A stretch of DNA of 32,000 nt from Pyrodictium abyssi. GTDB lineage: Archaea; Thermoproteota; Thermoprotei_A; Sulfolobales; Pyrodictiaceae. The stretch covers positions 480,001-512,000 of the forward strand of contig NZ_AP028907.1 of NCBI RefSeq assembly GCF_036323395.1. The letters are read 5' to 3'. The position numbers and the translations under genes were made by a program. This document shows positions 5,952 through 24,242 of this stretch, piece after piece; the first letter of the stretch is position 1, and the number at the start of each line of letters is the position of its first letter. The notes under the pieces were generated by a model that worked only from the letters and a program-made list of their open reading frames with translations, was not told the DNA's origin and ran no database searches.

Positions 5952-6248
5952 GTGGAGCGGGGGCGACTGGTGCCGCTGGGCGCTGTGGAGAGGGCCTCTA
6001 GGCTACAAGCCATACTCCAGTGGGAGGGAGGGTTCTGCGTCTCCCGCCACGCCTCCAGCATGCTGGTAATGCACTCCGGCAGGATAGTTGCGACACTCCA
6101 CGTCTACGAGGACGAGTGTAGCCTACGCATCTACAGGCCATGGATACGGGAGAACAGGGAGGCGCTCGAGGCGCTGAGGGCCCTCGTAGCCCGGCTCTGC
6201 AGCCGGGTGCTAGAGGAGTATGTGCCCAGAGAACAGCCAGGAGGGTAG
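5952..6248 (+). CDS. Hypothetical protein
   Basis: 98-aa ORF with GTG start and no clear SD. It ends 6 nt before the next ORF. No recognisable motif. Confidence 0.3.
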   Translation: MERGRLVPLGAVERASRLQAILQWEGGFCVSRHASSMLVMHSGRIVATLHVYEDECSLRIYRPWIRENREALEALRALVARLCSRVLEEYVPREQPGG

Positions 6249-6254
6249 ACTGCT

Positions 6255-6926
6255 ATGCCGGGGGGAAGCAGCACTAGTGATAATAGTGGTGGCGCTGGCT
6301 CGGGCCCCGGTCCCCTGGGGAAGCTGGCCGGGAGATCCGGGCTCTGGAGCCTCCTCTTCGCAGTGCTCGGGCTCTGGCTGGCCGAGGCGGCTCACTACAC
6401 AGTGCTCGCTGCGCAGCTCCACGGCGTGTCGGGGCTACGGGCCCTGCTCCTATACGCGCAGGTGGCGGCGCTGGGTGCCCCTCTCGCGGTGGCGCGGTGG
6501 CTATTCTACATGGGCGGGCTCTGGCTCTTCGCATGGCTCCTTGGCGTGCGTGGCCTCGACGGCCGCCGCGCGCTCGTAGCAGCCTCCTACACGGCTCTAG
6601 CACACGCGCTGGCAGCGCTCGCTGCTACGCCGCTATGGCTGGTGGCGGGGCAGGAATGGGCGCGGCAAGTGGTGGCTGCTAGCTACTACGGCTCCCTGGC
6701 CGCTGCGGCCGCTGCGCTCATCTGGGCCGGCGGCCGCGCAGCCGGGGGCTACGGGCCCCGCATAGCCTTGGCCTCTATTGCCTCTGTGCTGCTCGTGGGT
6801 ATGCCGCCGGCGGCGCTGCTTACGCCGGGGTTCAACGCGTACGCTAGCATACTGTACCTGGTGTCTGGCGGGGGTGCTGGCGCAGCCGTTAACGCTACAG
6901 CTGCTAGCACTACGCCAGGCGGGTAA
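6255..6926 (+). CDS. Ala/Leu-rich integral membrane protein, unknown function
   Basis: 223 aa with about 5 hydrophobic helices. The SD-like GGAGGG lies about 8 nt upstream of the ATG. The region is very GC-rich, so several overlapping ORFs exist. This frame is preferred for its TM pattern and SD. Confidence 0.5.
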   Translation: MPGGSSTSDNSGGAGSGPGPLGKLAGRSGLWSLLFAVLGLWLAEAAHYTVLAAQLHGVSGLRALLLYAQVAALGAPLAVARWLFYMGGLWLFAWLLGVRGLDGRRALVAASYTALAHALAALAATPLWLVAGQEWARQVVAASYYGSLAAAAAALIWAGGRAAGGYGPRIALASIASVLLVGMPPAALLTPGFNAYASILYLVSGGGAGAAVNATAASTTPGG

Positions 6927-7169: not shown

Positions 7170-8366
7170 ATGGCTAGGGGCTCCATGAGGCTAGACGTTA
7201 GGCGATTTGGCCGTACTAGGCTGGCCGGTGCAGTAGTTGTAGCCGCTGCAGCGCTAGCAGCATTGATAGCGTTCGCCTCGTTAACGGTGAATATTGACGC
7301 GTCTAAGGCCTATGCGGAGCTCGCCGAGAGCGGGTACACTATTACCAGCAGCAAGCTGTTTAGCGAGAAGGTGCTGGGCGCTCAGGGACCAGTAGCCGTC
7401 ATGTTCCGCTCCGAGACGTGCCCGATGTGTGAGCGCATGTACCCCTACTGGAGGGTGGTCGAGGAAAAGGCTCTGGAGCTAGGCTTTAGAGCGTACGATG
7501 TGAAGCTGACTAGGGAGACTAGCCGGGTCTTCGACCGGTACAGGGTGCACGACCTCCCAACATTCATAGTGTTCTACGGCGGCGAGCCGGTTGCAAGGCA
7601 CGTCGGCGCGTTCACGCCGGATGACGGGAACATAACTAGGGCTATGATAGAGTGGGTAACGGCGTCGATCCAGGGTAGCCGGCTGGAAGCAGCTGTAGAG
7701 GAGCAGGGGCCCCAGGCCCAGCAGCCGGGCCAGGAGTCCTCGCCGTTCACTACTCTAGCAGCTTCCGTAGCCACGGCGTTGACTGCGGGTGTTGTGGCCT
7801 CGCTCTCTCCCTGCGTCCTACCGCTGCTAGTCACCAATAGCGTTGCCTTAGCCAGGCGCGGCAAGGGCCCGGGCATAGCGGGCTGCCTGGCGTGTAGCCT
7901 ATCCGCGTTTGCCGGCGTGATGGCTGTTGGCGTGGTCTTTCTCCTGGCTTCTAGCCTCCTCGCGGAGGTACAGACAGTGGTTATGAGCGTCGTAGCCGTG
8001 GCTGTCGTAGCGGCGGGCGTGTCGTCGCTGCTAGGCCTACCGGCCGAGATTCCGAGCTCGCGTAGAATCCGCTCCGGCAGCCTGGCCGTATTCTGCGGGC
8101 TCTACGGGTTCCTAGCTCTCCAGTGTAGCCTCCCCATAGTCGTCGGCGCGTTGCTACTAGTGCTGGGTAGCGGGGGCCCGGGCAAGGGCCTAGTGGTGCT
8201 TCTCGCTTTCTCGCTAGGCCTCTCCCTGCCGCTATCAGTAGCCCTGCACCTCGGCCCCCGTATGGCCGCTCTGACAGGCCGGGTAGAGATGCTCGAGAGA
8301 GCTGGCGGCGTGGTAATGGTCCTCGCCGGGGCGGTCCTCCTAGCCCATAGCCTTGGCCTCATCTAG
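7170..8366 (+). CDS. ccdA: Thioredoxin-domain / CcdA (DsbD-family) fusion, thiol-reductant transporter for cytochrome c maturation
   Basis: 398 aa. N-terminal TM anchor, then a thioredoxin fold with CPMC (residues 84-87, nt 7419-7430) and DLPTFIVF. A Gln/Pro linker follows, then a 6-TM CcdA core with both signature cysteines (LSPCVLPLL and LQCSLPIVV). It lies immediately upstream of ccmF. Confidence 0.85.
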   Translation: MARGSMRLDVRRFGRTRLAGAVVVAAAALAALIAFASLTVNIDASKAYAELAESGYTITSSKLFSEKVLGAQGPVAVMFRSETCPMCERMYPYWRVVEEKALELGFRAYDVKLTRETSRVFDRYRVHDLPTFIVFYGGEPVARHVGAFTPDDGNITRAMIEWVTASIQGSRLEAAVEEQGPQAQQPGQESSPFTTLAASVATALTAGVVASLSPCVLPLLVTNSVALARRGKGPGIAGCLACSLSAFAGVMAVGVVFLLASSLLAEVQTVVMSVVAVAVVAAGVSSLLGLPAEIPSSRRIRSGSLAVFCGLYGFLALQCSLPIVVGALLLVLGSGGPGKGLVVLLAFSLGLSLPLSVALHLGPRMAALTGRVEMLERAGGVVMVLAGAVLLAHSLGLI

Positions 8367-8384
8367 CACAGTGTCATAGCCCCC

Positions 8385-11384
8385 ATGCATGGGGTGGTGT
8401 CCTGGATGGCCTTGCACTATACTGGTATAATCCCCGCACTAGCTGCCCTCGTCTACACGACTGCACTGTACATGCTACTCCGCCGCGATATCGGCACAGC
8501 GTCTAGGCTGGTGAAGTGGGCTTCTATGTTCACGGTGGCGGGCTGGCTAGTATACCTGGTCCCGTTCGTTACGCTAGACTATAGCCTGGAAGAGGTCTTC
8601 TGGAACACAAGTCCCGGGCTCCCCCTCTGGATGAGGATAGCGTCGGCGTGGGCTGGCGGCGGTGGCAGCCTCTACTTGTTCGCGGCAATATCGGCAATAG
8701 CCACGCTCTATATTGCCCGTGGCCTAGCCGAGGCCAAGAAAAAGGATGTACTGGTTACCGGGGCAGCAGTAGTGACTCTGGCTGCTATAGTGGGCGCGTT
8801 TGCTAACGGCGCCTTCAGCGTCATGGAGGAGCGCCCTGCTAGTGGTGCGGGGCTTAACCCGCTGCTGAAGAGCCCGTGGCTCTACCCGCACCCCCTCAGC
8901 ACCTTCGGCGGCTACGCGCTACTCTCAATAGGCATGGTGGCGCTCCTCGCAGGCCTACGGCGCCGCGGCCTACTAGTCTACGAGCTTGGCTGGGCCCTCC
9001 TGACTCTCGGCATAATGCTGGGCGGGTACTGGAGCTACGAGACCTTCGGCTGGGGCGGCTACTGGGCCTGGGACCCCGTCGAGACAAGCGAGCTAATGGT
9101 GTGGCTCGCTGCTACACTGCTACCCCACGTCATGGTGGCTGTGCCGAGCCTAGCCGCGTTCACCGAGTACCTGACCCTATCTAGCGTGTTCCTCGCGATG
9201 TACGTGACGCGTAGCGGGCTCAGCCCGCTACACAGCTTCGCCGCGGCTAACCTAGGCGTGGCTATGCTACTAGTAGTTGCTCTAGTAGCGCTTTTCCTAG
9301 CGTTCCGCCGGCTAGGCGAGCTCCGCTTCCCCGGGCTAGATAGGGTGAAGAGAAGCCCCCTCCAGGCGGGCATGCTAGCGGCCACTATAGCGCTCTTCGC
9401 GGCAGCAATATTTGTCTACGCTACACTGCTCCTCCCGTCAATGCTCACAGTGGTAGGCGTCGAGGCTACAGTGCCGCAGATGCAGAGTGGTGTACGCTAC
9501 TTCCACCCCGTGCTATACCCGCTACTAGTAGCTATGCTGGCGGCGATACCGCTAGCGTTCATAGGTGACAGGATAGGATGGAGAGGCTACGCTGCGCTGC
9601 TAGCGGCGACGTCTATAGCCTCGGTTGTAGCCGGCGCTGCAGCGCTCAGCGGCGCTCTCATGCTGACTCCTCTCAGCAGTAGCGCGACTAACGCTATGAT
9701 GGCCTTCGGGCTCCCCTGGGCAGGCCTTGCCGCTGCAGCAGTACTACTCTACATAGCCTTGCGGCTACGCGGAGGCAAACTCGTATCGGAGCGCATGACT
9801 GCTATCAGTCTGCTACACCTAGGCCTCGCAGTCACCGTCATAGGTGTACTGCTCAGCGGTACGCACTCGTTCAACGAGGCCTACTTCATAGACGCTAGCA
9901 TGAAGCCCGGTGAGCCAGTCATCCTACCAAATGGCCTGAAGATAGAGCTGGTCGGCTACGAGTTCGAGCTAAGTAACTCCACGGTGGATATATACACGGG
10001 CTATGCGGGGCGCTCGCTCAGCTACATACTCGCCTGGGACGCGCTAGCAGCTCTAGCCTCGGACTACAGCAAGAAAATAGAGCAGGTGCACGAAGCCGAG
10101 AAGCTGCTAGGATCCAACGAGACACTGCGGAGCCTTGCTGAGCTAGCTGCAGAGACGCACATCTCCACAGTCAACGGCAGCATCGCCATAAAGGGCGCCG
10201 CCAGGGTAACCGGTATAGACATGTTCACGGGAGCCGAGACTCCAATAGCAGATAGTGCTGACATAACAATAGAGCTCGTAAACCCGAGTGTCACAGTAGC
10301 GATAGAACCCGTGCAGGACAGCATGGGTAGGGTTAAGTCAGCCAGGTTCCGCCTCTACGTAACAGCCGATGAGGCCGCCGTAGCGGGGCTCCCAGGAGGC
10401 AACATTACGGCACGGACGGTGCTCGACGTCACGTTCGCGGAGCCGGTACGGCTTACAGTGGGCAGAGTATCGCTAGAGATAAGCCACGTGTACGTCCTAG
10501 CGATGGCAACGGGGTCGACCGGCCACCCTGCTGTAGAGCAGCGCGACGGAGTGCTCGTCTATAAGCCAGCTCTACTGGTCCCAAGCGGCAGCATGGAGGT
10601 AGGGGCGCTAACCGTAGCAGTCCCGCTGGACGTGCCGGCCAGCATGGCAGGGTACGTGGAGAGCTGCCGCGACCCGCTGCTCCAGAGGCTGCTCGGGAGC
10701 AGCCTAGCAGAGGCACTCGCCAACGGCGCAGCGCTAAAGGCTCTAAACCCGCCCGATTGCCGGCCAACAGCAGAGACCCCCCATGGAATCTGCCCCGGCT
10801 ACATAGATGTGCCCCACACAGTCCCGGAGACAGCGTGGCTAGTCCTAAAGCTGCGCATAGAGCACGGCGGCGACGTCCGCGAGGAGACCGTTAGGCTACG
10901 CTTCGAGTCATATGGAGAGGTTCAGGGCATACACGGCCTAGTAACCAAGGTCATACACCCGCGGGTAGGGCTTACGGACGTCTACATAGCCATACACGCG
11001 CCAGTAGTCACACCGGACTGGGGGGTCACCGGGTACCACGAACTGCTGGTATACTATCTCCACGCCGTATACCAGTCGATGAACCTAACGCCTGCCCAGC
11101 GCATAGCTCTAGCAGCCCTGTTCGCGTCAGGCTACATGATGGATACCGCATCGTCGATAAACGATAGGATGCAGCGCAGCCTATTCCTAGAGCATGCTGC
11201 TATCGAGCTCTACCTGCTAGCGGAGGACTTCAGCCCCGAGAACTCGACTATAGCCAGGCAAGGGCTCCCTGTCCAGGTTAAGCTCGTCCCAGGCGTAGCC
11301 CTGGTATGGTACGGCGCCGTTATGATGGCCGTTTCGGCTGTCTATGCTGCTGTTGTTGCGGCCTATACAGCGAGGAGGAGTTAG
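8385..11384 (+). CDS. ccmF: Cytochrome c-type biogenesis protein CcmF (heme lyase) with greatly expanded extracytoplasmic domain
   Basis: 999 aa. WWD heme-handling motif WSYETFGWGGYWAWDPVETSELMVWL. Also present: upstream GLNPLLKSPWLYPHP (P-His1 region), downstream ATLLPH (P-His2), RSGLSPLHSF, and LLHLGLAVTVIGVLLSG (TM-His2 region). All are collinear with E. coli CcmF as I recall it. A C-terminal TM ends in ...ARRS. Confidence 0.9.
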   Translation: MHGVVSWMALHYTGIIPALAALVYTTALYMLLRRDIGTASRLVKWASMFTVAGWLVYLVPFVTLDYSLEEVFWNTSPGLPLWMRIASAWAGGGGSLYLFAAISAIATLYIARGLAEAKKKDVLVTGAAVVTLAAIVGAFANGAFSVMEERPASGAGLNPLLKSPWLYPHPLSTFGGYALLSIGMVALLAGLRRRGLLVYELGWALLTLGIMLGGYWSYETFGWGGYWAWDPVETSELMVWLAATLLPHVMVAVPSLAAFTEYLTLSSVFLAMYVTRSGLSPLHSFAAANLGVAMLLVVALVALFLAFRRLGELRFPGLDRVKRSPLQAGMLAATIALFAAAIFVYATLLLPSMLTVVGVEATVPQMQSGVRYFHPVLYPLLVAMLAAIPLAFIGDRIGWRGYAALLAATSIASVVAGAAALSGALMLTPLSSSATNAMMAFGLPWAGLAAAAVLLYIALRLRGGKLVSERMTAISLLHLGLAVTVIGVLLSGTHSFNEAYFIDASMKPGEPVILPNGLKIELVGYEFELSNSTVDIYTGYAGRSLSYILAWDALAALASDYSKKIEQVHEAEKLLGSNETLRSLAELAAETHISTVNGSIAIKGAARVTGIDMFTGAETPIADSADITIELVNPSVTVAIEPVQDSMGRVKSARFRLYVTADEAAVAGLPGGNITARTVLDVTFAEPVRLTVGRVSLEISHVYVLAMATGSTGHPAVEQRDGVLVYKPALLVPSGSMEVGALTVAVPLDVPASMAGYVESCRDPLLQRLLGSSLAEALANGAALKALNPPDCRPTAETPHGICPGYIDVPHTVPETAWLVLKLRIEHGGDVREETVRLRFESYGEVQGIHGLVTKVIHPRVGLTDVYIAIHAPVVTPDWGVTGYHELLVYYLHAVYQSMNLTPAQRIALAALFASGYMMDTASSINDRMQRSLFLEHAAIELYLLAEDFSPENSTIARQGLPVQVKLVPGVALVWYGAVMMAVSAVYAAVVAAYTARRS

Positions 11385-11543
11385 AGCGCCTGACGAGAAC
11401 GGTTCTAGCCTTCTTCCCCGGTGGACACGTATTTTTAATTAATTCTGCTCGATAATAATTTTTATTTGTTTCGGAGCCAATGATATTAAGTACTCCCAGG
11501 AGCAATCATACGATAGACGGCGAGTGGCGCGAGGAATCCGGCG

Positions 11544-12527
11544 ATGGATCGCACGAATCTCGTTATTCTAGTGTTACTCGTGGCCTTGGCGGTCTCAAAT
11601 GCGGCATGGATAACGCTATACAGTCACAGCAAGTACAACGTGGAGAACCTAATCAGCGAGAACCAGAGGCTAAGCCGGCAGCTAGAACTACTCGCTAGCA
11701 GGGTGAAAGAACTAGAAGACAACAACACAAAACTCCTGCTCCAGCTCCGCGACATAAGCGACCATTACAAGAGGCTCCTAGACCTAATACAACAGGCTAA
11801 CAGCACAATAGCGAATGCAGCCGTCGTGGCCAGGCTACTGGATAACATAAACGCGAGCCTAACAACGCTATACATGTACACCAATACTCACGCATACTAT
11901 ACCCCCAACGTGAGGAGTCTATTCACGCCGGGCACTGTAGCAGACCTAGTAGTGCCGATAACCGGGCATCCAATGTACAATAGGGAACATGCGCTCGAAG
12001 ACATGAGGAAGATGTATGACTGGGTGCAGGAGAACATACAGGACGCAGTGGACCACAACTTTGTTGCAATAAAGAGGCCGGAATACGTGGACATAAACGG
12101 TGCGAAGTACTTCTATAGCTTCCAGATAGACATAGTGGATAACTATATACAGTCACCGTCGGAGACCCTACAGCGCTTGGCAGGCGACTGCGAGGACCAG
12201 TCCATACTGCTAGCATCAATGTACAAGGTCTACCTGGACAATGTCGGCGACGCGTGGACGCTCTGCATGTTCTCGGAGAAGTACGACCACTGTATAGTCG
12301 TGGCCTGGGTGGCCCCCCAGAAGAAGTTCGTGATAGCTGATCCCACGCTGGACTACTATGCTGAGGCGGATAGTCTGCGCAGTGCTCTAGACGACTGGCT
12401 AGCCTACGTGGGGATGGAGATGAAGCAAATCCATAGAATGATAGTATTCAACAATAAAGACTACATAGAGGATGTGTCCTACAACGTGATACACGCTCTC
12501 GAGGAGAAGACTAGCAGACAAAGCTGA
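11544..12527 (+). CDS. Membrane-anchored transglutaminase-like cysteine protease superfamily protein
   Basis: 327 aa. N-terminal TM, a coiled-coil stretch (ENQRLSRQLELLASRVKELEDNNTKLLLQL), then a Cys-His-Asp core: GDCEDQSILLASMY (Cys216, nt 12189-12191), YDHCIVVAW, VIADPT. GC is lower than in the neighbours (about 50% in three hand-counted 60-nt lines). Confidence 0.78.
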   Translation: MDRTNLVILVLLVALAVSNAAWITLYSHSKYNVENLISENQRLSRQLELLASRVKELEDNNTKLLLQLRDISDHYKRLLDLIQQANSTIANAAVVARLLDNINASLTTLYMYTNTHAYYTPNVRSLFTPGTVADLVVPITGHPMYNREHALEDMRKMYDWVQENIQDAVDHNFVAIKRPEYVDINGAKYFYSFQIDIVDNYIQSPSETLQRLAGDCEDQSILLASMYKVYLDNVGDAWTLCMFSEKYDHCIVVAWVAPQKKFVIADPTLDYYAEADSLRSALDDWLAYVGMEMKQIHRMIVFNNKDYIEDVSYNVIHALEEKTSRQS

Positions 12528-12541
12528 GGAGGTGGACGGTT

Positions 12542-13276
12542 ATGCCCCGTATGGCCGCTAGCCTGGTCGCTATAGCGATAATCGTGCTAGCGAGCATCGC
12601 GACGCCTACACTAGCCGAGCAGACTATAAAGGTGAAGGTCTACCACGCTGAGCTAGGCCCGTTCATCCAGACGCTAGCCGATGGGCGCAGGATAGAGGTA
12701 GAGATAGACGTCTACTACCCTGACACACTCTTCTACAGAGGCCCCGAAGAGGGCCTAGGCACAGTGAATTTCACGATAACAACCAACTGGACCGGGCCGT
12801 GGGACGGCATAGTAACAGTGCAAGTAGTAGACCCGGGGTACCGGATTGACCCCACCACGCTCAAGCCTGTAGAGTCTATGAACGCGTGGGCGGAAGGGGG
12901 AGGCACTATAGGCACAGGGACTCTCCACATAGCAAGCGGGGCCTATACCGGCCCCGTCAAGAACGTAACTGTCGTCGTAAGGCCGCACTCGCGCTACTTC
13001 ACAGCGCCCGCCGGCGACTATGTCGCCCAGTACTTCTTCAAGGTGAGGCTCGCCTTCTTCAAGCCTAGCGGCAGCAAGGTGCTAGGTGGCGACGTCAACG
13101 TCTACACCGATAGCCAGACAGCGCCCGCAGTCAAAGTAGTCGTCATAAAGCAGCCTAAAGGGGACGAGGGCCTAGCAAGCTCGGTAGCGCTCAACGCTGC
13201 TATAGCTGCAGCAGTTGTAGCAACAGGGTACGCGGTAGTCGAGTATACCCTAAGGCGCAGGAAGGAGAAACACTAG
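12542..13276 (+). CDS. Secreted beta-rich protein with C-terminal membrane anchor, unknown function
   Basis: 244 aa. Signal peptide ...ASIATPTLA|EQ, C-terminal TM (AIAAAVVATGYAVVEY) and a basic tail RRRKEKH. A strong SD (GGAGGTG) precedes the ATG, 14 nt after the previous stop. Confidence 0.65.
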   Translation: MPRMAASLVAIAIIVLASIATPTLAEQTIKVKVYHAELGPFIQTLADGRRIEVEIDVYYPDTLFYRGPEEGLGTVNFTITTNWTGPWDGIVTVQVVDPGYRIDPTTLKPVESMNAWAEGGGTIGTGTLHIASGAYTGPVKNVTVVVRPHSRYFTAPAGDYVAQYFFKVRLAFFKPSGSKVLGGDVNVYTDSQTAPAVKVVVIKQPKGDEGLASSVALNAAIAAAVVATGYAVVEYTLRRRKEKH

Positions 13277-13583
13277 TAGCCCCAGGCCAGCCTCCGGGGC
13301 GCCCCGCCAGGTTATCCAAGTGTTTTTACCCCCGGGCTTCGAGGGCGGCCGTTCCCTACTCCTATGCGGCGTACCCCGTGACGACGGGCTCTCTTGCGGG
13401 ATGCTGTCCATGGTGTCGTAGTCATCCCAGCTCCCCGGCCTGTGCGGCCTTTGTCGAAACACTGTACTAGGGTGCTCTTCTACTCTTGGCTTATTTATCG
13501 CGAGTTGAAATGCATTGACCGTTCCTGGACGGAGACAAGATTTTATTATAGGATTCAAATATCTTGCTCGCGGAAAAAATAAT

Positions 13584-13599
13584 AAATTAAATTTAAATA
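13584..13599 (+). promoter_or_regulatory. Putative TATA/BRE promoter element of the octaheme cytochrome gene
   Basis: AAATTAAATTTAAATA sits in an AT-rich block about 50-64 nt upstream of the ATG at 13648. The SD-like GGTGAGAGG lies at 13639-13647. Confidence 0.45.
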
Positions 13600-13647
13600 A
13601 CATGTAGAACCCATAGTGAACGTGGAGCAACAGAGTATGGTGAGAGG

Positions 13648-15636
13648 ATGCAGAAGCCTCTAGCCAAGGTAGTAGTCTTTTGGGTGATATCCATCTTCCT
13701 CCTCCCCAGCCTAGCGCCCCTAGCGCAGGCAGCGACATACAGCTGGGGCGAGGAGATCAGCCTCTCCGGTGTACAGCTCACGCAGGAGTCCAAGGACTGT
13801 GTAGAGTGTCACATGCGGGCGACACCCTTCATAGTGTACGACTGGTACAAGAGCAAGCACCGCATGGTTGGCGTGGGCTGCTACGAGTGCCACAGCGCTA
13901 AGCCCGGCACAAGGCCCGACGTCTACGAGCACTACGGCTACTACATAACGACACTAGTGACGCCTAAGCAGTGTGGCCGCTGCCACCCTGCGATAGCAGA
14001 GGAATTCCAGAAGAGCGTCCACGCGTTCGCCGGAGTACACGCCTACGTGCTAAAGGAGGAGCCAGCATACTGGATGATCCTGGCGAAGCAGTTTGGCTGG
14101 GACGAGCACTTCAAGGTACCAGCCGAGTACATTGAGACCGAGTGGGTACCCAAGATAGTGCGCGACTTCGTGGGTGACCAGAAGTACGGTAAGGCGGTGC
14201 TAGAGGAGGACCCGACCAACGCCATAATACCGTACAACCCGCTAGGCCTAAGCATTGACAACTACGTTGCCCAGAAGGCACTCTACATCTGGGGCATACG
14301 CGGCTGTCTAGGATGCCACGGCGTGCGCATGGACGTCAAGGACGCGTTCGCCTACCCGAGCCTAGACGAGCTAATGAAGTACATGAAGGAGGGCAAGGCC
14401 CCCGAGAAGGTAGTATACGACCCAGCATTCATGCACAACCACGGCATCGGCCGTGTGAACCCCGACGGCAGCCTAGGCAGCTGTGAGGCGTGCCACCCGT
14501 ACCACGGCTTCAGCGTAAAGATAGCCAGGAAGGGCGCCTACCAGGCATGTGGCCGCTGCCACACCGGCCCCGACCACCCGAACGACGAGCAGTGGAGCAA
14601 GAGCGTCCACGGCGCAATATTCTGGGGCGAGGCTGAGGACTGGGACTGGGACAAGCCGGTAAACAACTGGATGCCAGGCCGCGACTACAGGGCGCCGACA
14701 TGTGTAACCTGCCACATGGCCGCAGTGTTCAACGAGCGCGGTCAGGTCAAGTACGCTAGCAGCCACGACGTAGCCATAATAAGCAAGTTCAAGCTAGGCA
14801 AGTGGGTCTACACGCTACCACGTGTAGCAGGCCTACCCGACTTCGCCATACCGACAGCCACTGCGACACAGGCGCCGGTGTTCAAGAGTCCGACAACCGG
14901 TGACACAATAACGCTAGTATACCCAGAGCCCGACTGGAAGGTGCGCAGACAGAGAGCAATCGACATGTGTGCCCAGTGCCACACCAAGGAGTATGCAGCT
15001 GCATGGCTGAAGACCTACGACTGGATGATAATACTAGTAGACTACATGAGAGACGAGTACGTGCTAACCATAGCCAACATGCTGAAGGCTAAGGGCCTGT
15101 TTACGCCAATGGACGAGTGGATGGTGAGGAACCTAGGCGCTATGGCCAACAGGCCTACCAAGATGTCTGCAGCGCACTTCGGCCCCGACTTCACCTGGTG
15201 GGAGGGCATAATGCACTTCGCCGAGAAGATAGAGGAGTGGCTAATCGACGTCTACGAGAGGCCTGCTGTAGCCAAGAAGGCGCCAGAGATACGTGAGAAG
15301 ATTGAGGAGATACTGCCATGGTTCAGGGAGCAGTGGGAGGGCGAGGGCAGCACTGGTACAGTTCACACCCTAGCAGAGGTGAAGACAACTCTAGCTAAGG
15401 CCGTCGAGGTACCGGGCATGAAGGCCTATGCGGAGAAGGTGGAGAAGCTAGAGACGCCAGCTAAGCCACTAGTAACTAAGGCTGCTGTAACCACCGTAGG
15501 CGAGGTAGGCGAGCACAGCCTAGCACTACCGGGCGATGAGGCCAGTGTGGAGATGCCAGTGGCTATCTCTGCTGTGTTCCCGGCAGCGCCTCTACTACTA
15601 GTACTAGTGTCCTTTAGGAAGCGTGTAGCAGCCTAA
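13648..15636 (+). CDS. Octaheme cytochrome c of the hydroxylamine oxidoreductase (HAO) family, signal peptide plus C-terminal TM anchor
   Basis: 662 aa with eight CxxCH motifs: CVECH, CYECH, CGRCH, CLGCH, CEACH, CGRCH, CVTCH, CAQCH. Flanking context is collinear with Nitrosomonas HAO as I recall it: KDCVECH..TP..V..W..S.H; C..CH..H.FS; CHTGPDH....W..S.HG; APTC..CHM. Signal peptide ...LAQA|AT. The C-terminal hydrophobic helix plus FRKRVAA resembles the HAO C-terminal anchor. Confidence 0.9.
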   Translation: MQKPLAKVVVFWVISIFLLPSLAPLAQAATYSWGEEISLSGVQLTQESKDCVECHMRATPFIVYDWYKSKHRMVGVGCYECHSAKPGTRPDVYEHYGYYITTLVTPKQCGRCHPAIAEEFQKSVHAFAGVHAYVLKEEPAYWMILAKQFGWDEHFKVPAEYIETEWVPKIVRDFVGDQKYGKAVLEEDPTNAIIPYNPLGLSIDNYVAQKALYIWGIRGCLGCHGVRMDVKDAFAYPSLDELMKYMKEGKAPEKVVYDPAFMHNHGIGRVNPDGSLGSCEACHPYHGFSVKIARKGAYQACGRCHTGPDHPNDEQWSKSVHGAIFWGEAEDWDWDKPVNNWMPGRDYRAPTCVTCHMAAVFNERGQVKYASSHDVAIISKFKLGKWVYTLPRVAGLPDFAIPTATATQAPVFKSPTTGDTITLVYPEPDWKVRRQRAIDMCAQCHTKEYAAAWLKTYDWMIILVDYMRDEYVLTIANMLKAKGLFTPMDEWMVRNLGAMANRPTKMSAAHFGPDFTWWEGIMHFAEKIEEWLIDVYERPAVAKKAPEIREKIEEILPWFREQWEGEGSTGTVHTLAEVKTTLAKAVEVPGMKAYAEKVEKLETPAKPLVTKAAVTTVGEVGEHSLALPGDEASVEMPVAISAVFPAAPLLLVLVSFRKRVAA

Positions 15637-15652
15637 GGGGGCGGTGAGGGCT

Positions 15653-15677
15653 GGGGAGGAGACCCTCCCCTCTTTTT
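15653..15677 (+). terminator. Hairpin plus T-tract terminator after the octaheme gene
   Basis: GGGGAGG (15653-15659), loop AGAC, CCTCCCC (15664-15670), then TCTTTTT (15671-15677). It begins 17 nt after the TAA stop. Confidence 0.6.
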
Positions 15678-15891
15678 ACCGCGGCCTAGGCCCCTCCTGC
15701 GCCCCTATCGGCGCCGCCGTGAATCCACCTCGGCCTGTCTTAATATTTGTGTTCGTTAGCCTCTGGCAGCGTGTATACGTCTAGCCGATAGCCCTGGCTC
15801 GGGGCTGTTTCTTAGCTGGAGCGTTGGCGTCGAAGCGTTTAGCTTTATCAAGGGTTACAGATGCTCTTGACCACTGGTAGGGGGAGGCTTA

Positions 15892-17772
15892 TTGTACTGG
15901 GAGCCCGTGCTGTACCTAGCTCTGCTGTCCGAGGCTGTTGCGGCAGCACTTGCTATCCGCAGGGGGATGTGTGAGGGCTATGATAAACAGCTCGAGTCGA
16001 GCCCCATATACCGTGTAGGCTTTGTGCTTGTGTTGATGTCTTTTATCCTCGCTATGCGCTTCGACGTGATGGTGACAATACCCAGCCTTATGCTCCTAGC
16101 TTCCAGCCTAGCTGTACTAGCCGGAACCAGGCTCAGAGCCAGGATGAGCCCGGTTGAGGTACTTGGCTCGGCTATAGCGTTCTACTCTTTCGCACTTGCT
16201 TCACTTGCCGCCCGCGGCGCAGTGCTTGACATAGATCCGCGTGGTAAGGGGCTGCTGCCCTGGATTCTGGTGGCGCTTTCGGCTGGGCTAGGCCTCTTGT
16301 CGGCTCTATCTACGCTAGAGAAGCCCCGCAGGGGCATAGCTGCTTTCATGGGGCTGCTAAGCGGCGTGGGCCTCGTGGCTCTTGGCTACTGGCTGCTCAT
16401 AGAGACGCGTGTCGGAACGCCATTGTACAGTGATGCTCTAGGCTCTGCACTGCTTGCTCTGCTGCTCACCGGCGTCGCTATAGCATCTGGGCTGTCTCCG
16501 TACCTCGTCATGGCAGCTGGTATACTGGCCGGTCTCTTTGCTAGCCGCTCGCTACTGGCAGGCGGTGTGCCATACATCGCGTGTACTGGTAACTGTGGCT
16601 CGCTCGCTGTGGCGTGGCTTATCTTCTCGGTTATCGTGGCTCTGCCCCGGCTATACCTAGAGGCTGCTGAGATGCATGATAGGATACGCTCAGCGGACGT
16701 AAACGTGGCCCTATCACCCCCTGTGCTGGCATCTGCTTCAGTGCTTGCCGCTGGGATTGCAGCGTGGGTGGCGGCTCAAGGCACTGTGGGTATAGCCCCT
16801 ATGGCGGTCGTTGGTATACTTGCTGCAGCTGCTGCTGTCGGCTCTGCTGCCGTAGCTGTACTCCTCGTTGGGGGCGCTGTTGCTGTCTACAGCCCGGTGC
16901 TAGGCCTCATCGCGGCTGCTGCTGTAGCTCTTGTATTCACAGTGCTGCGGGGCCGAAGCATCGGCTTCTTCTCGGCCCCGAAGAGCGTCCTCCCCGGGCT
17001 ACTGCTCGTAGCCGTAGGGCTTGCAGCTGGAGGCTACATCGTCGCTACCCTGGGCCACGTGTCCGAAGCCAAGGCGTCTATTGAGGTGTCCGGCCTAGGC
17101 TCCCTGGCTCCCATACAGCCGCCGAGCGATGAAGCTACCCATGCGTTCTTCCAGCTCTACCTCGGCGTCAAGAACGAGACTATACTCTACGCTATCCTCG
17201 AGCCAACTGTGGGTGAAGAGGAGGCTCTAAGGATGGTTGAATTTGTCCATGCTATCAGGGTTGCTGCCGAGAAGAGAGGCATCCAGGACCCCTACAATAT
17301 AACCGAGCTTGACATACCACGCGAGATGCCGAGCCTGAAAGCGGTACTCGATGTTAATGGCATGCACGTCCCCGTGGAGATACCTGCCTCTAGTGTACTG
17401 TACGGCCATCCCTTCAATACTAGGGTCATCCAGGCTGGGCTAGACCTCGTCTCTGTAGGGCTTCCCGGTAATGCTACGAGCGCGCTGACTAGCGCCTACC
17501 TTGGTATGATCTCTGACCCGGGCCTCGTGGATGGGGATGCTCTGCGCTACTCCTTATTCGCGGCCATGGCTGTTAGCTGGAGGGAGACGGGCTCGCTCAA
17601 CATGACGGCTCAGCTGATGTTCGACATGTTGCTGGGCAACGTTTCCGGGTCCGGCACCGTAGTGGCGGGTGTTGATATTGCTAGGGCTCCGTTAGGGGTG
17701 CTAGCGCTAGCAGTATACGGGGCGTGTATAGTTGCCGCTCCCTTGGCTCCTATTTTTGCGCGCCGTAACTAA
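15892..17772 (+). CDS. Polytopic membrane protein with about 200-aa extracytoplasmic domain and C-terminal TM, unknown function
   Basis: 626 aa with a TTG start preceded by GGAGG (15883-15887). About 12 Ala/Leu/Gly-rich TM helices occupy the first 390 aa or so. A soluble domain with N-x-T/S sequons (NET, NIT, NAT, NMT, NVS) follows, then a terminal TM and ARRN. No heme or Fe-S motif is seen. Confidence 0.7.
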   Translation: MYWEPVLYLALLSEAVAAALAIRRGMCEGYDKQLESSPIYRVGFVLVLMSFILAMRFDVMVTIPSLMLLASSLAVLAGTRLRARMSPVEVLGSAIAFYSFALASLAARGAVLDIDPRGKGLLPWILVALSAGLGLLSALSTLEKPRRGIAAFMGLLSGVGLVALGYWLLIETRVGTPLYSDALGSALLALLLTGVAIASGLSPYLVMAAGILAGLFASRSLLAGGVPYIACTGNCGSLAVAWLIFSVIVALPRLYLEAAEMHDRIRSADVNVALSPPVLASASVLAAGIAAWVAAQGTVGIAPMAVVGILAAAAAVGSAAVAVLLVGGAVAVYSPVLGLIAAAAVALVFTVLRGRSIGFFSAPKSVLPGLLLVAVGLAAGGYIVATLGHVSEAKASIEVSGLGSLAPIQPPSDEATHAFFQLYLGVKNETILYAILEPTVGEEEALRMVEFVHAIRVAAEKRGIQDPYNITELDIPREMPSLKAVLDVNGMHVPVEIPASSVLYGHPFNTRVIQAGLDLVSVGLPGNATSALTSAYLGMISDPGLVDGDALRYSLFAAMAVSWRETGSLNMTAQLMFDMLLGNVSGSGTVVAGVDIARAPLGVLALAVYGACIVAAPLAPIFARRN

Positions 17773-17850
17773 ATTAAATGAATAATTGTTTGTGCTGAAT
17801 GTATCGATATTTTTGAGACAAAGGCTAAAAGTATTGTCAATGCTTTTTCC

Positions 17851-17857
17851 TATAAAA
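17851..17857 (+). promoter_or_regulatory. Putative TATA box of the 13-14-heme cytochrome gene
   Basis: TATAAAA lies 23-29 nt upstream of the ATG at 17880, inside a 107-nt AT-rich intergenic region. GGAGGGG at 17864-17870 could alternatively act as an SD. Confidence 0.45.
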
Positions 17858-17879
17858 CCGGCGGAGGGGTGAAGCCGCC

Positions 17880-19151
17880 ATGGACGCTAGGCAAGCTGCT
17901 AGAACAGTGGTAATAGTAGCTGTATTCTTAGTAGCGCTGCTAGGCTACTGGCGGCTGACGTTACCAGGCTACTTTGAAGGCATGAGCCTCTGTGGCGAGG
18001 GCTGCCATGTAACCAACACCCTCGACTACAAGAAGATTACACACCCGTTCTGGTGCATTGGCTGCCACGGATTCGGTGTCAAGAGCGAAATTATGCCGGG
18101 GATACCGCTGCAGCGAGACCCCGAGATAGAGATGCTTGTCGAGGAGCACGGTGAATGCGTCATGTGCCACAGTGTGCCCGGAGAATTCCACTGGAAGCAC
18201 ATCAACGCCACCGAGGAAGAACTAGCCAAACTAGGGCTAGAGCGTCCAGTGCAGTGTACAGACTGCCACACCACAGCCTATCACGGCGGCCACAAGGATA
18301 TGCCTAAAGACGACTCGTGTCTCAAGTGCCATGATACTGAGAAGCTCCATCCAGACATGAATAAGAAGCTTGTCTCAGCGTGTACCAAGTGCCACTCCGA
18401 GGAGCCCGCGGTAGACTGGACTGTGTTCAGAAAGGGCCAGCTGGGCTATGGCTTCGTAGCCGATGCTGGCCTAGCTCTAGCCTCCGACATAGGTGTCGTG
18501 AAGTCTGTGGCTCCTGGCTGCCTCCTATGCCATAACACGCCGGAGGCACAGGGGCACATAAAGCATGTAGGCAAGAAGTACGAGGGTAGAGAAGTAGACT
18601 GTCTCGATTGCCACAGGAACGATATACCGCACGGCGAGAAAGTGGGAACCAGTGTATGTCTCGACTGCCACCAGCCCGGTGAAGTAAAGTGCCACGATGT
18701 TAACTTCGAAGAGTATCTCGTCGACTGCTACAAGTGCCACGGCGGCTTCAAGCTCGCCAACGAGACGCTATACCTAACCGGAGTCGGGTGTAGGGGCTGC
18801 CACGCTGATACACTCAAGAAGATAACAAGCCTAGGACTACACCTCAAACACACAAAGTACTTCAACTGCGATAAGTGCCACGACATCGAATCTGGCAGCC
18901 ACAAAGCCTTCGTAGAGTCTGCCGGTGATGTGGAGAAGTGTCTAGAATGCCATACAGAGGCAGGAGGCGTAAAGCCAGAAGCACTCAAGGATATCAAATC
19001 CACGGTTGCGCTAACCTTCAGCGAGGACATAAAGCACGTAGACCTCGTGAAGAGGGCCGACGGTAACTGCTTCAAGTGCCACGATGAATGGTATGTCAGC
19101 GGCAAGCCCAAGGTATTCTACTACAAGGTGCAAGATAGTGATAAGGGCTAG
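17880..19151 (+). CDS. Membrane-anchored multiheme cytochrome c (13 CxxCH + 1 CxxxCH)
   Basis: 423 aa with an N-terminal TM (TVVIVAVFLVALLGYW). Motifs: CGEGCH (CX3CH, nt 17991-18008), then CIGCH, CVMCH, CTDCH, CLKCH, CTKCH, CLLCH, CLDCH, CLDCH, CYKCH, CRGCH, CDKCH, CLECH, CFKCH. About 29 His in total, enough for bis-His ligation of every heme. Confidence 0.92.
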   Translation: MDARQAARTVVIVAVFLVALLGYWRLTLPGYFEGMSLCGEGCHVTNTLDYKKITHPFWCIGCHGFGVKSEIMPGIPLQRDPEIEMLVEEHGECVMCHSVPGEFHWKHINATEEELAKLGLERPVQCTDCHTTAYHGGHKDMPKDDSCLKCHDTEKLHPDMNKKLVSACTKCHSEEPAVDWTVFRKGQLGYGFVADAGLALASDIGVVKSVAPGCLLCHNTPEAQGHIKHVGKKYEGREVDCLDCHRNDIPHGEKVGTSVCLDCHQPGEVKCHDVNFEEYLVDCYKCHGGFKLANETLYLTGVGCRGCHADTLKKITSLGLHLKHTKYFNCDKCHDIESGSHKAFVESAGDVEKCLECHTEAGGVKPEALKDIKSTVALTFSEDIKHVDLVKRADGNCFKCHDEWYVSGKPKVFYYKVQDSDKG

Positions 19152-19172
19152 CTTTTGCGCTACTTGTCCCGC

Positions 19173-19200
19173 CTTATGGTTAGAAACTTATGGTTAGAAA
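19173..19200. repeat. Perfect 14-bp tandem direct repeat (CTTATGGTTAGAAA x2)
   Basis: Read directly: 19173-19186 equals 19187-19200. It lies in the 80-nt gap between the multiheme gene stop (19151) and the next start (19232). Confidence 0.9.
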
Positions 19201-19231
19201 AGGATGTGTCCCCGGGGGTGCCGTGTAGGCC

Positions 19232-19978
19232 TTGAGCACGGTTAGGACCGAGGCCGCGGGTAGCCAGGCCCCCAGCTGGCTCCAGGAGCATCTGTGGCTC
19301 CGCCTACGCGCCTTATTCGACCTAGTGCTGCAGCTCAGCGTGCTCCGGCGCCGCCGTGATATAGGCGAATGGCTGGTTGTATGGCTTACATACCTGGGCA
19401 TAGTCGGCGCCATACTAATGGCCATAGTAACGGCTGCGACGAGGGGCGTAATCCTAGCCGCGAACACGGTTCTAAGGCCGCATGCGCTGCCGATAATCAG
19501 CCCAGAGCTCGAGAAGATATTCATAAGCTGGCCTCAGCTAGCCATAGGTATGGGGTACCACGCGCACATAATTACAGCGCTATACTTCGCAGCCCCAGCG
19601 TACACAGCCGCCTTCATCGCAGCCTTCCTGTTGAAGGACGAGTGGCTGCGCAAATTCCTATTCCCAAGGGGGATAAACATTAGGGATCTGTCTGACCACC
19701 TGCTGCTAGTGCTGAGCTTCGCCACGGCCGTCATGGTCGCGGTGATAGCGCCCAGGATGGCTGCTAGCGGTGCACTAGTGCCGGGGCTCCAGGCGCTAGC
19801 CCCGCATATAGCAGTAGGGACCTTCTGGATAATCTACTCCCTAGCGATACGCGGGCTGGCATACCGCATCGTCGGCGCGGCACTAGGACTGCTATACGTG
19901 GTGATCTTCAACCACTACCCGAGGGAGGCCTTCCGGGACCTGTTCGAGGAGGACCCCTGGGTAAGCCTACTACGCTAA
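19232..19978 (+). CDS. His-rich 5-TM membrane protein (candidate b-type cytochrome / quinol-interacting subunit; function unproven)
   Basis: 248 aa with a TTG start of uncertain position. About five TM helices carry His at or near the helix ends (GYHAHIITALYF, DHLLLVLSF, APHIAVGTFW, NHYP). It is co-oriented with and immediately downstream of the multiheme cytochrome. Confidence 0.55.
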   Translation: MSTVRTEAAGSQAPSWLQEHLWLRLRALFDLVLQLSVLRRRRDIGEWLVVWLTYLGIVGAILMAIVTAATRGVILAANTVLRPHALPIISPELEKIFISWPQLAIGMGYHAHIITALYFAAPAYTAAFIAAFLLKDEWLRKFLFPRGINIRDLSDHLLLVLSFATAVMVAVIAPRMAASGALVPGLQALAPHIAVGTFWIIYSLAIRGLAYRIVGAALGLLYVVIFNHYPREAFRDLFEEDPWVSLLR

Positions 19979-20232
19979 CAGGGTAGTGCCGAGCCCAATA
20001 GGCTGAATGGTTTTTGCACCCACGTATCCGCTTAAGCTAGGCGTGGCCCCACCTGTTCCCCTGTGCAGGTCCTCAGTATGCCTCCAGGGGCCCTTGTTTA
20101 CGCGGTAAGGGCTCATGATGTGTCTCTGGTTGTGCAGCCGCGAGCCTCTTAGCTGGTAGGGCCCACGGCTGTGCCTGGCACCAACTCCTCCCACCGGGGC
20201 CGGCTAGCTGCCTAGACAAGGGCTGTAGGGCT

Positions 20233-21315
20233 ATGCTGTGGTTTGTGCTCACGACTGGCGCCTGTAACCTGCGCTGTAGGTACTGCGGCGGCGGGTTCCC
20301 GGCCGAGTACTCTCCGCCGCGCCCCCTGTACCGGGCCGAGGAGCTCGTGGAGACCATTGCGCGGCTTGACCCGGACCCGGTGGTCTTCTTCTACGGGGGC
20401 GAGCCCTTGCTGAACCCGAGGCTGATAATGGAGGTAATGGACCTCCTGCCGGGGGCCAGGTACGGGATACAGACGAACGGCCTCCTCTACCGCCGGCTCC
20501 CCGAGGAGTACTGGGCGAGGTTCAGCCGTGTCCTCCTCAGCATAGACGGCGTCGAGAAGGTCACGGACAAGTGGAGGGGCCGGGGCGTCTACCGCCGCGT
20601 GCTGGAGGCCCTAGGGTTCCTCCTGGAGCTGCGTAGGCGCCGTGGCGGCCCCAGGGTCCTGGTCGCCAGGATGGCGGCGACCCGTGACACCGTGATAGAC
20701 CGTGACGTGCTCCACCTCCTCGGCCTCGGGTTCGACAAGGCCCACTGGCAGCTCGACGCTGTCTGGAGCGAGCCCTGGCCCCTAGGCGAGTGGGCCCGCG
20801 GGATATACCTCCCGGGGCTCCGGAGGCTCGCCGAGTGGGTCGCCCGGAGGCCCTGGGAGAGGCTCAGCAGGGTAGCCCCGTTCCACGGGATAGTCTCGGC
20901 GCTCTACAGCGGGGGCTACCGCTGGTACCCCTGCGGCGCTGGCCGCGGCGCGGTGGCGGTGAACACGGATGGGAGGATACTGGCGTGCCCGATAGCGGTC
21001 CGCGAGCAGTGGGCGGTGCTGGGTAGGCTGGGCGAGTGGAGCGGCAGGCTCGCGCCCAGCAGCATGCTGCCGGAGAGGTGCCGCCGGTGCAGCTACCTGC
21101 CCCTTTGCGGGGGCCGCTGCCTCTACGCCCAGCTGGAGTCGGATTACTGGCCCCGCGAGCTACTCGAGGAGCTGGACAGGGTGACCCGTAGGACTATAGA
21201 CATTGTTCTCTCGGTCGTGGTGCCGGCGGTGGAGAGGGCTGTGGAGAAAGGGCTTATGAGCCCGGGTGACGTCTTCTACGACCCCCTGGAGGAGTCCACC
21301 GAGGTCATACCCTAG
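20233..21315 (+). CDS. Radical SAM enzyme with C-terminal SPASM/twitch-type auxiliary cluster domain
   Basis: 360 aa. CNLRCRYC (CxxxCxxC, nt 20263-20286), GGEPLL. C-terminal Cys clusters YPCGAGRGAVAVNTDGRILACP and CRRCSYLPLCGGRC are typical of SPASM maturases and AhbD/NirJ-type enzymes. Confidence 0.85.
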   Translation: MLWFVLTTGACNLRCRYCGGGFPAEYSPPRPLYRAEELVETIARLDPDPVVFFYGGEPLLNPRLIMEVMDLLPGARYGIQTNGLLYRRLPEEYWARFSRVLLSIDGVEKVTDKWRGRGVYRRVLEALGFLLELRRRRGGPRVLVARMAATRDTVIDRDVLHLLGLGFDKAHWQLDAVWSEPWPLGEWARGIYLPGLRRLAEWVARRPWERLSRVAPFHGIVSALYSGGYRWYPCGAGRGAVAVNTDGRILACPIAVREQWAVLGRLGEWSGRLAPSSMLPERCRRCSYLPLCGGRCLYAQLESDYWPRELLEELDRVTRRTIDIVLSVVVPAVERAVEKGLMSPGDVFYDPLEESTEVIP

Positions 21316-22730: not shown

Positions 22731-22805
22731 GGCGTAGGGGCACCTCCCGCGGGGTCCAGGTGCCTAGGAGCATGGCGGCCCACAAACATGTGTGGCGGTG
22801 ATGGG

Positions 22806-24239: not shown

Positions 24240-24242
24240 CGC

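Follow-up and report, generated by a model that had tools for sequence, protein, structure and literature searches.

A tyrosine-less HAO-family octaheme cytochrome of Pyrodictium abyssi and its possible link to electron exit during growth on Fe(III) oxide

The 32,000-nucleotide (nt) stretch of the Pyrodictium abyssi genome that we analyzed (hereafter the window; contig NZ_AP028907.1, positions 480,001 to 512,000, forward strand) carries a gene for a multiheme c-type cytochrome of 662 amino acids (aa), accompanied by genes for cytochrome c maturation, for several membrane proteins and for a second multiheme cytochrome (Table 1). The 662-aa protein contains eight CXXCH heme motifs, starting at residues 51, 78, 109, 220, 279, 301, 352 and 441, and all of its 16 cysteines sit inside these motifs; a search of the protein for the variants CXXCK, CX3CH and CX4CH yielded none. 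Judged by its sequence, the protein is an octaheme cytochrome of the hydroxylamine oxidoreductase (HAO) family (clade 1 of Soares et al. 2022) and not an OTR, MccA, ONR or NrfA, and it belongs to a branch of that family in which the cross-linking tyrosine of the oxidative enzymes is missing. Its orthologues Pyrde_0784 (Pyrodictium delaneyi) and Pyrfu_0788 (Pyrolobus fumarii) are already in the literature, and we use what has been reported on them to narrow down its role.

The family assignment was derived from profile and sequence searches as well as from alignment. The HAO-type multiheme model of Pfam (PF13447) recognizes the protein with 64.6 bits (cut-off 21.9, E = 1e-17). Among all PDB sequences the best match is IhOCC of Ignicoccus (4qo5, E = 8e-47), followed by Kustc0458 (6h5l, 3e-23), KsHOX, the Nitrosomonas europaea enzyme NeHAO (1fgj, 8e-12) and HDH (6hif, 4e-11). 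A family profile built from 46 members and run against the PDB chains with HMMER (E <= 0.001) scored 311 bits with IhOCC, 147 with Kustc0458 and 126 with NeHAO, but only 29 with MccA, and at that threshold it matched none of the ONR, OTR and NrfA chains. In the MAFFT alignment the eight motif histidines pair one-to-one with H83, H149, H176, H233, H243, H263, H314 and H364 of NeHAO. The NeHAO reference sequence was verified by its identity to PDB 6m0p_A over 570 residues and to 4fas_A from residue 25, and most of the IhOCC, Kustc0458 and KsHOX sequences were rebuilt from the PDB-search alignments, with the segment lengths checked. A first-pass annotation, made from the DNA sequence alone, had described the eight motifs as collinear with those of bacterial HAO and had assigned the protein to the HAO family. 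Both statements are borne out, the former by the alignment of all eight motif histidines with NeHAO and the latter by the profile scores of IhOCC and MccA and by the grouping with IhOCC in the tree described below.

With respect to the active site, non-motif histidines that are available as distal ligands occur at residues 71, 95, 125, 286, 321, 373 and 510, besides the non-ligand H310, according to the alignment. Five or six of these seven candidates are conserved in 88% or more of the aligned sequences, and a His at 510 in only 52%. Their number would suffice for the bis-His ligation of seven hemes, and heme 4 would then be five-coordinate. The distal Asp/His pair, put forward for checking in the first-pass annotation, is indeed present, as D309 and H310 align with D267 and H268 of NeHAO (mature numbering). 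Within a set of 121 sequences, i.e. the protein and its 120 best homologues, D309 is Asp in every sequence and H310 is His in 112, and the pair is invariant within the Pyrodictiaceae clade, which diverges to 45% identity.

A heme-free AlphaFold2 model made from the 46-sequence alignment (predicted local distance difference test, pLDDT, 78; predicted template-modelling score, pTM, 0.76) contains three predicted C-terminal helices, at residues 447-481, 487-510 and 515-536. Searched against the PDB with Foldseek, it had 4qo5 as its sole match (E 3.6e-16, probability 1.0). The model is insufficiently compact to superpose, and on IhOCC it gives a template-modelling score (TM) of 0.27-0.33 and a root-mean-square deviation of 20 Å, with 24% identity in the structure-based alignment.

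At the site of the cross-linking tyrosine the protein carries tryptophan. In two MAFFT L-INS-i alignments Y467 of NeHAO and the KsHOX tyrosine aligned with it face W518, with T466 facing W517, and the HMMER profile alignment to 1fgj (domain 4, weak) also puts W518 opposite Tyr467; a register anchored on the downstream helix, as obtained in a profile scan, gives W517 instead of W518. An ungapped scan of the C-terminal profile against NeHAO and KsHOX returned the right register at a z of only ~3.7, tied with a spurious GVDHNNW match. A comparison of the clade profile with NeHAO by hhalign was discarded as uninformative, because it stops at Q505 (NeHAO 413), short of the tyrosine region, and its last segment is a chance 'NRP' match. 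We infer that the exact register is uncertain by one residue (W518 or W517) and that the residue is a Trp either way. The predicted helix 487-510 ends in AH, as does the NeHAO helix that precedes the tyrosine loop, and is followed by the helix 515-536. Beyond residue 440 tyrosines occur only at 449, 457, 466, 471, 536 and 594, so none lies within 472-535 and no plausible register puts a Tyr at the cross-link site. The first-pass annotation had placed Trp517 at this site, within a motif at nt 15172-15207. The presence of a Trp, the lack of a Tyr and the motif itself (AAHFGPDFTWWEG, residues 508-520) all stand, but the motif starts one codon earlier, at 15169 (nt 15169-15207), and the residue number probably has to be raised by one, to W518.

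The lack of the tyrosine should not, however, be taken as remarkable. Across the 121 sequences Trp occupies position 518 in 118 cases, Phe in two, Met in one and Tyr in none, and the missing Tyr is therefore the norm for the branch and nothing special. A tyrosine at position 515, three residues before W518, occurs in 90 of the 121 homologues and was considered as a substitute cross-linker; it was rejected because close orthologues have Tyr or Phe there interchangeably. The residue at 515 is Phe in the 662-aa protein and in L070, a homologue from an epsilonproteobacterial metagenome-assembled genome (MAG), and Trp in IhOCC.

The position of the protein within the family was derived from a neighbor-joining tree (424 columns, 100 bootstraps), in which L070 stands for the characterized epsilon-Hao. 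The tree places the 662-aa protein in a Pyrodictiaceae clade (bootstrap support 100%), the sister of which (likewise 100%) consists mostly of thermophilic bacteria (Desulfurobacterium, Caldithrix abyssi, Aquificota). The wider branch holds IhOCC and homologues from Hydrothermarchaeota, Methanococcoides, ANME-2, Bathyarchaeota, Nitrospira and Scalindua, as well as L070. An insertion that carries the signature GxGRxNPDGSxGxC separates hemes 4 and 5 in the 662-aa protein, IhOCC and each of the 120 listed homologues, and is missing from the aligned NeHAO, KsHOX and Kustc0458, which are the sequences that fall outside this insertion-bearing branch in the tree. On these comparisons the protein shares the Tyr-less branch with IhOCC, yet it is a member of a separate subclade and not an IhOCC orthologue.

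Table 1. Features of the octaheme cytochrome gene and its surroundings (window positions)
Feature	Position	Strand	Basis or remark
HAO-family octaheme cytochrome c coding sequence	13648..15636	+	662 aa, ATG start; orthologue of Pyrde_0784 and Pyrfu_0788
Sec-type signal peptide, residues 1-28, end AQA/A (cleavage at the slash)	13648..13731	+	hydropathy, predicted N-terminal helix, sequence reading
Heme 1, CVECH, residues 51-55	13798..13812	+	motif scan, NeHAO alignment
Heme 2, CYECH, residues 78-82	13879..13893	+	motif scan, NeHAO alignment
Heme 3, CGRCH, residues 109-113	13972..13986	+	motif scan, NeHAO alignment
Heme 4, CLGCH, residues 220-224	14305..14319	+	aligns with NeHAO P460 heme motif CTMCH; presumed five-coordinate catalytic heme
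Insertion of ~54 aa between hemes 4 and 5, invariant GxGRxNPDGSxGxC	14320..14481	+	alignment
Heme 5, CEACH, residues 279-283	14482..14496	+	motif scan, NeHAO alignment
Heme 6, CGRCH, residues 301-305	14548..14562	+	motif scan, NeHAO alignment
Distal Asp309-His310 pair	14572..14577	+	aligned with NeHAO Asp267-His268
Heme 7, CVTCH, residues 352-356	14701..14715	+	motif scan, NeHAO alignment
Heme 8, CAQCH, residues 441-445	14968..14982	+	motif scan, NeHAO alignment
Trp517-Trp518, site of NeHAO cross-linking Tyr467	15196..15201	+	alignments
C-terminal extension, residues 540-637: helical, then low-confidence linker/stalk	15265..15558	+	pLDDT, DSSP, homologue tails
C-terminal hydrophobic membrane anchor, residues 638-656, then basic tail RKRVAA	15559..15615	+	mean hydropathy 2.34; predicted helix 647-661
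Putative AT-rich promoter-like region, TATA-like runs (tttaaata)	13540..13600	+	sequence reading
Shine-Dalgarno-like GGTGAGAGG, immediately 5' of the ATG	13639..13647	+	sequence reading
Terminator-like G+C hairpin and T-run, 17 nt past the stop	15653..15680	+	consensus match only
Cytochrome c maturation genes	7170..11384	+	thioredoxin/CcdA-like fusion 7170-8366; 999-aa CcmF/NrfE-type heme lyase 8385-11384
327-aa protein, N-terminal anchor, weak transglutaminase-like match	11544..12527	+	conserved upstream neighbor
244-aa exported protein, C-terminal anchor, no family match	12542..13276	+	conserved upstream neighbor
626-aa integral membrane protein, ~12 hydrophobic segments, orphan	15892..17772	+	orthologue of Pyrde_0785
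423-aa cytochrome c, N-terminal anchor, 13 CXXCH and one conserved CX3CH	17880..19151	+	orthologue of Pyrde_0786 and Pyrfu_0786
248-aa membrane protein, 5 hydrophobic segments, no Cys, His near helix ends, orphan	19232..19978	+	orthologue of Pyrde_0787 and Pyrfu_0785

The combination of a signal peptide with a C-terminal anchor in an archaeal HAO-type protein, as proposed in the first-pass annotation, is confirmed by the hydropathy and the predicted helices at the two ends of the protein. The C-terminal extension is missing from the bacterial sister clade when the tails of the homologues are compared, and the tail that follows is similar in all 13 of the Pyrodictiaceae-clade homologues. These tails (nt 15460-15636 in the P. 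abyssi gene) have a conserved strand-like [KA]PLV..V.V...G.V motif, then a short hydrophobic segment rich in Ala, Leu and Pro, often with [VI]PxxxP, and finally a charged tail that is basic in some members and acidic (EGRREEEQ) in others. In its make-up this arrangement resembles a C-terminal sorting signal more closely than a plain anchor; the NCBIfam CTERM models had no match among the cytochrome tails. Hydrophobic C-terminal tails with basic ends also occur in six homologues from Bathyarchaeota, Hydrothermarchaeota, Methanococcoides and ANME-2, with a motif of the PGF type in Methanococcoides and of the CGP type in Hydrothermarchaeota. Over the 121 top sequences a C-terminal hydrophobic stretch is found in just 14, and most bacterial homologues have no tail.

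The octaheme gene is embedded in a six-gene order that is conserved in P. delaneyi, P. fumarii, a Hyperthermus MAG and a Thermoproteota MAG, and that runs from the 327-aa protein (which has a coiled-coil region) and the 244-aa protein over the octaheme cytochrome to a membrane protein of ~600 aa, a 13-heme cytochrome and a membrane protein of ~248 aa. In the Pyrodictiaceae the 327-aa and 244-aa genes always lie 5' of the cytochrome gene. Identity to the octaheme cytochrome is 93.7% for Pyrde_0784 and 74.8% for Pyrfu_0788, and the exact 662-aa protein was not found in the contig index. When the genes at 7170-25259 of the window are compared with those of P. delaneyi, the 93.7% identity of the octaheme protein matches that of adenylosuccinate synthetase (93.8%) and of the housekeeping enzymes (88-94%), whereas its neighbors in the cluster reach 65-85% (e.g. 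64.7% for the 626-aa membrane protein and 73.7% for the 13-heme cytochrome), in agreement with tight constraint on the octaheme enzyme.

In P. fumarii (CP002838.1) the two cytochrome orthologues, at 4775-6775 and 8730-10001 of the locus examined, have 8 and 13 CXXCH motifs by our count, where Kashyap and Holden (PMC8105010) give 6 and 11 hemes; in one Logan assembly the P. fumarii octaheme gene is split, with products of 418 and 231 aa. The survey of archaeal c-type cytochromes by Kletzin et al. (2015; PMC4429474 supplement) placed Pyrfu_0788 in its 'Cluster 04 HAO' and lists two more HAO-like paralogues in that species, Pyrfu_1334 and Pyrfu_1339.

The remaining members of the cluster are less easily classified. 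The 423-aa cytochrome shows weak HmcA and DmsE matches and had no match in the PDB; its orthologue Pyrfu_0786 has been modelled on the high-molecular-weight cytochrome c of D. vulgaris (2e84; PMC4429474 supplement). Its CX3CH motif, CGEGCH (residues 38-43, nt 17991-18008), lies just past the N-terminal membrane helix and is matched by CAGGCH in the Hyperthermus MAG, by CSKGCH in the Thermoproteota MAG and by CSEGCH in P. fumarii. This motif may bind a 14th heme at the membrane interface, which is where NrfH-type proteins oxidize quinol. The gene for the large CcmF/NrfE-type lyase lies near that of the CX3CH-bearing cytochrome. Searches among 5.8 billion proteins returned four homologues of the 626-aa protein, all from Pyrodictium, and 12 of the 248-aa protein, all from Pyrodictiaceae; neither protein matched a family in Pfam or NCBIfam (E up to 10), nor did the 248-aa protein in the PDB. 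The 248-aa protein might conceivably be a b-type cytochrome.

Beyond the cluster, a gene for a radical SAM/SPASM protein of the TIGR04084 (AF0577) family (415 bits, 20233-21315) adjoins it both here and in P. delaneyi, the place being taken in P. fumarii by a B12-binding radical SAM gene. A type II/IV secretion-system ATPase (PF00437, 111 bits) is encoded at the left end of the window (2135-3772, reverse strand). Scans for tRNAs and for Rfam families across the window gave nothing. A consensus scan located a promoter-like site at 13554-13583, 5' of the cytochrome gene. Because this gene is flanked by promoter-like, Shine-Dalgarno-like (GGTGAGAGG) and terminator-like signals, all of them consensus matches only, it looks like a transcription unit of its own.

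The most direct indications of function come from the proteomics of P. delaneyi by Kashyap and Holden (PMC8105010). In heme-stained gels Pyrde_0784 was found solely in the band of ferrihydrite-grown cells and not in that of nitrate-grown cells, and by tandem mass tag quantification its values were 0, 3.5, 10.9 and 31.9 on nitrate as compared to 138, 201, 275 and 170 on ferrihydrite, i.e. ~60-fold higher on ferrihydrite (log2 fold change 5.93, adjusted P 0.002). These authors name the cluster Pyrde_0784-0787 'Mcc' and regard it as a menaquinol-oxidizing relay; the homology to HAO goes unmentioned in their paper, the main text of which does not contain the word 'hydroxylamine'.

Our preferred reading, which we hold with about as much belief as doubt, is that the P. 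abyssi protein, like its orthologues Pyrde_0784 and Pyrfu_0788, is a Sec-exported HAO-family enzyme that is tethered to the outer face of the membrane and serves as a general electron exit of the Pyrodictiaceae, tied to growth on Fe(III) oxide. The linker of ~100 residues, together with the C-terminal helix, would hold the protein at the outer side of the cytoplasmic membrane. Electrons would leave the (methyl)menaquinol pool through membrane partners, candidates for which are the membrane-anchored 13(+1)-heme HmcA-like cytochrome and the two lineage-specific integral membrane proteins, and would enter the octaheme cytochrome, to travel along its chain of bis-His hemes either to a small substrate at the open heme 4 or out via an exposed heme. 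A reductive direction is suggested by analogy, because every characterized Tyr-less relative works reductively. According to PMC8042395 the Tyr-less epsilon-HAOs and Kustc0458 reduce nitrite or hydroxylamine, and in PMC9250108 IhOCC is termed an octaheme nitrite reductase, which agrees with the reductive character that the first-pass annotation had ascribed to these relatives. We infer with moderate confidence that the protein is a strongly constrained electron-exit enzyme, the production of which is linked to growth on Fe(III) oxide and not on nitrate; the reduction of nitrite or hydroxylamine would probably be a retained catalytic ability and a secondary job. Given that the sole in vivo data point in this direction and that the gene is kept across differing respiratory habits, we consider a role in electron exit, either Fe(III)-linked or general, somewhat likelier than dedicated nitrite ammonification. 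A bolder version of the same proposal seems doubtful to us, namely that an HAO enzyme has been recruited as a tethered electron-exit cytochrome for Fe(III) oxide, i.e. an archaeal counterpart of OcwA, in which a module of the 13(+1)-heme cytochrome and the orphan membrane proteins replaces the NapC/NrfH quinol dehydrogenase. OcwA, which belongs to the same superfamily of cytochromes, is a surface-located terminal Fe(III) reductase and can reduce nitrite and hydroxylamine as well (PMC6703420).

Several observations weigh against an Fe(III)-linked electron exit. The high abundance on ferrihydrite could simply reflect repression by nitrate, since only two conditions were compared, and Pyrde_0785 and Pyrde_0787 rose just ~5-fold on ferrihydrite, non-significantly (PMC8105010). 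The same study credits molybdopterin enzymes with the actual reduction of Fe(III) and puts the cytochrome cluster upstream as a relay. Because the cytochrome gene has promoter- and terminator-like signals of its own and Pyrde_0784 is regulated unlike its neighbors, the cluster does not necessarily encode a single complex. The heme-free AlphaFold model superposes poorly on IhOCC (TM 0.27-0.33). Finally, the strict conservation of the Asp-His pair argues, as a sequence feature, for a bound small molecule as the substrate and not for a mineral, the sister-clade gene of Desulfurobacterium lies directly 3' of a gene for a NapC/NrfH-type tetraheme cytochrome, and Hao has been proposed to reduce nitrite in thermophilic ammonifiers that lack NrfA (PMC6896113, where Caldithrix abyssi is among the deep-sea nitrate ammonifiers).

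The last of these observations are at the same time arguments for a dedicated respiratory or detoxifying reductase of nitrite or hydroxylamine (or one that forms NO), which would act as the terminal enzyme of nitrate ammonification and receive menaquinol electrons via the adjoining multiheme cytochrome. Since the Asp-His pair is invariant in the clade, the nitrogen-oxide hypothesis stays alive, and Tyr-less HAO relatives do reduce nitrite and hydroxylamine. P. fumarii, in which dissimilatory nitrate reduction yields ammonium at temperatures of up to 113 °C, has an intact 8-heme orthologue within the same cluster, and the genome paper of P. delaneyi strain Hulk singled out the cluster cytochrome as the gene nearest to a nitrite reductase. 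That strain, however, encodes a protein identical to Pyrde_0784 and can reduce nitrate, but it makes no use of nitrite, and its genome has no recognized nitrite reductase; moreover, Pyrde_0784 is nearly absent on nitrate, and in P. fumarii the nitrite reductase could be Pyrfu_1334 or Pyrfu_1339. The terminal ammonifying or detoxifying reductase envisaged in the first-pass annotation is therefore possible, above all in P. fumarii, but it is opposed by the expression of Pyrde_0784 and by the failure of Hulk to use nitrite, and as the general function of the clade we regard it as rather unlikely. A further count against it is that the cluster occurs in P. abyssi, a species not known as a nitrate respirer.

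Two other functions were weighed, both of which we regard as improbable, that of a reductase of sulfur compounds (sulfite, thiosulfate, polysulfide or tetrathionate), after the example of the related MccA and OTR, slightly the more so. Ignicoccus, in which IhOCC is abundant, respires sulfur and is not known for any respiration of nitrogen oxides. Sulfur reduction has been proposed by Speth et al. (PMC9213671) for HAO-family proteins outside the nitrogen-cycling clade, and most Pyrodictiaceae respire sulfur compounds (PMC8105010). The similarity to MccA is nevertheless marginal at 29 bits, extra Cys motifs of the MccA kind are lacking, as all 16 cysteines belong to CXXCH motifs, and P. delaneyi Su06 keeps and expresses the protein while not reducing sulfur (PMC8105010). 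The other function is a non-catalytic one, in which the protein relays or stores electrons, e.g. from an outward-facing hydrogenase to other reductases, and the HAO active site is a relic. Igni_0955 (IhOCC) is described as abundant and as reduced by the native hydrogenase, with a relay role being proposed, and Kashyap and Holden likewise set the cluster between menaquinol and the terminal reductases. What speaks against a relic is that the Asp-His pair and the entire active-site region have remained invariant in a clade that diverges to 45% identity, and that the protein evolves far more slowly than the adjoining 13-heme cytochrome (93.7% versus 73.7% identity).

As a sequence finding alone the cytochrome is ordinary. 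The new point is that the 'Mcc' cytochrome induced on iron has an unrecognized homology to HAO, which links it to relatives with a nitrogen-oxide chemistry. For the HAO-family cytochromes beyond the clade of the ammonia oxidizers and anammox bacteria, IhOCC included, the present orthologue group is a useful test case, in which induction on iron oxide (P. delaneyi), conversion of nitrate to ammonium (P. fumarii) and the inability to use nitrite (Hulk) converge, and in which the HAO active site may act on nitrogen compounds or may have been redirected to the respiration of metals.

Among the known systems, IhOCC (Igni_0955, PDB 4qo5) is the one that the protein resembles in having eight collinear hemes, no cross-link Tyr, a crenarchaeal origin and an association with the membrane, as well as the GxGRVNPDGSLGxC insertion that separates hemes 4 and 5. 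It differs from IhOCC in having Asp-His where IhOCC has Asp-Val, W518 where IhOCC has Phe and His at two positions where IhOCC has Met, and also in the stretch between hemes 3 and 4, which is longer by ~50 residues, and in its C-terminal stalk and anchor; Igni_0955 is without a C-terminal transmembrane helix (PMC4429474 supplement). Kustc0458 (HAOr, PDB 6h5l) and epsilon-Hao are likewise Tyr-less members of the reductive HAO family that have the Asp-His pair, and Kustc0458, a nitrite reductase of known structure, shares a motif of the D-x-S/T-W-W-x-G type at the cross-link site. Kustc0458 nevertheless lacks the insertion and groups next to KsHOX and NeHAO, outside the branch, and the bacterial Tyr-less enzymes in general, in contrast to the protein described here, are soluble, in the periplasm or the anammoxosome, and are paired with small NapC/NrfH-type or diheme partners, with no C-terminal anchor. 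With the oxidative enzymes (NeHAO, 1fgj/4fas; KsHOX, 4n4j; HDH, 6hif) the protein has in common the heme order, the Asp-His pair and the three C-terminal helices (predicted here), and NeHAO, too, has a hydrophobic segment at its C-terminal end, with RKRK after it; the protein is set apart from the oxidative enzymes by the lack of the cross-link Tyr, the 54-aa insertion and the low sequence scores (E ~1e-11). The likeness to OcwA of Thermincola potens is a functional analogy only, based on the common NrfA/HAO/MccA superfamily, and OcwA has a C-terminal three-helix bundle. Unlike the present protein, however, OcwA has nine hemes, two of which are five-coordinate, belongs to clade 3 of Soares et al. 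(PMC9250108) and did not turn up in the sequence searches. From Pyrde_0784 and Pyrfu_0788, finally, the protein differs in species, the three being orthologues with an identical gene order.

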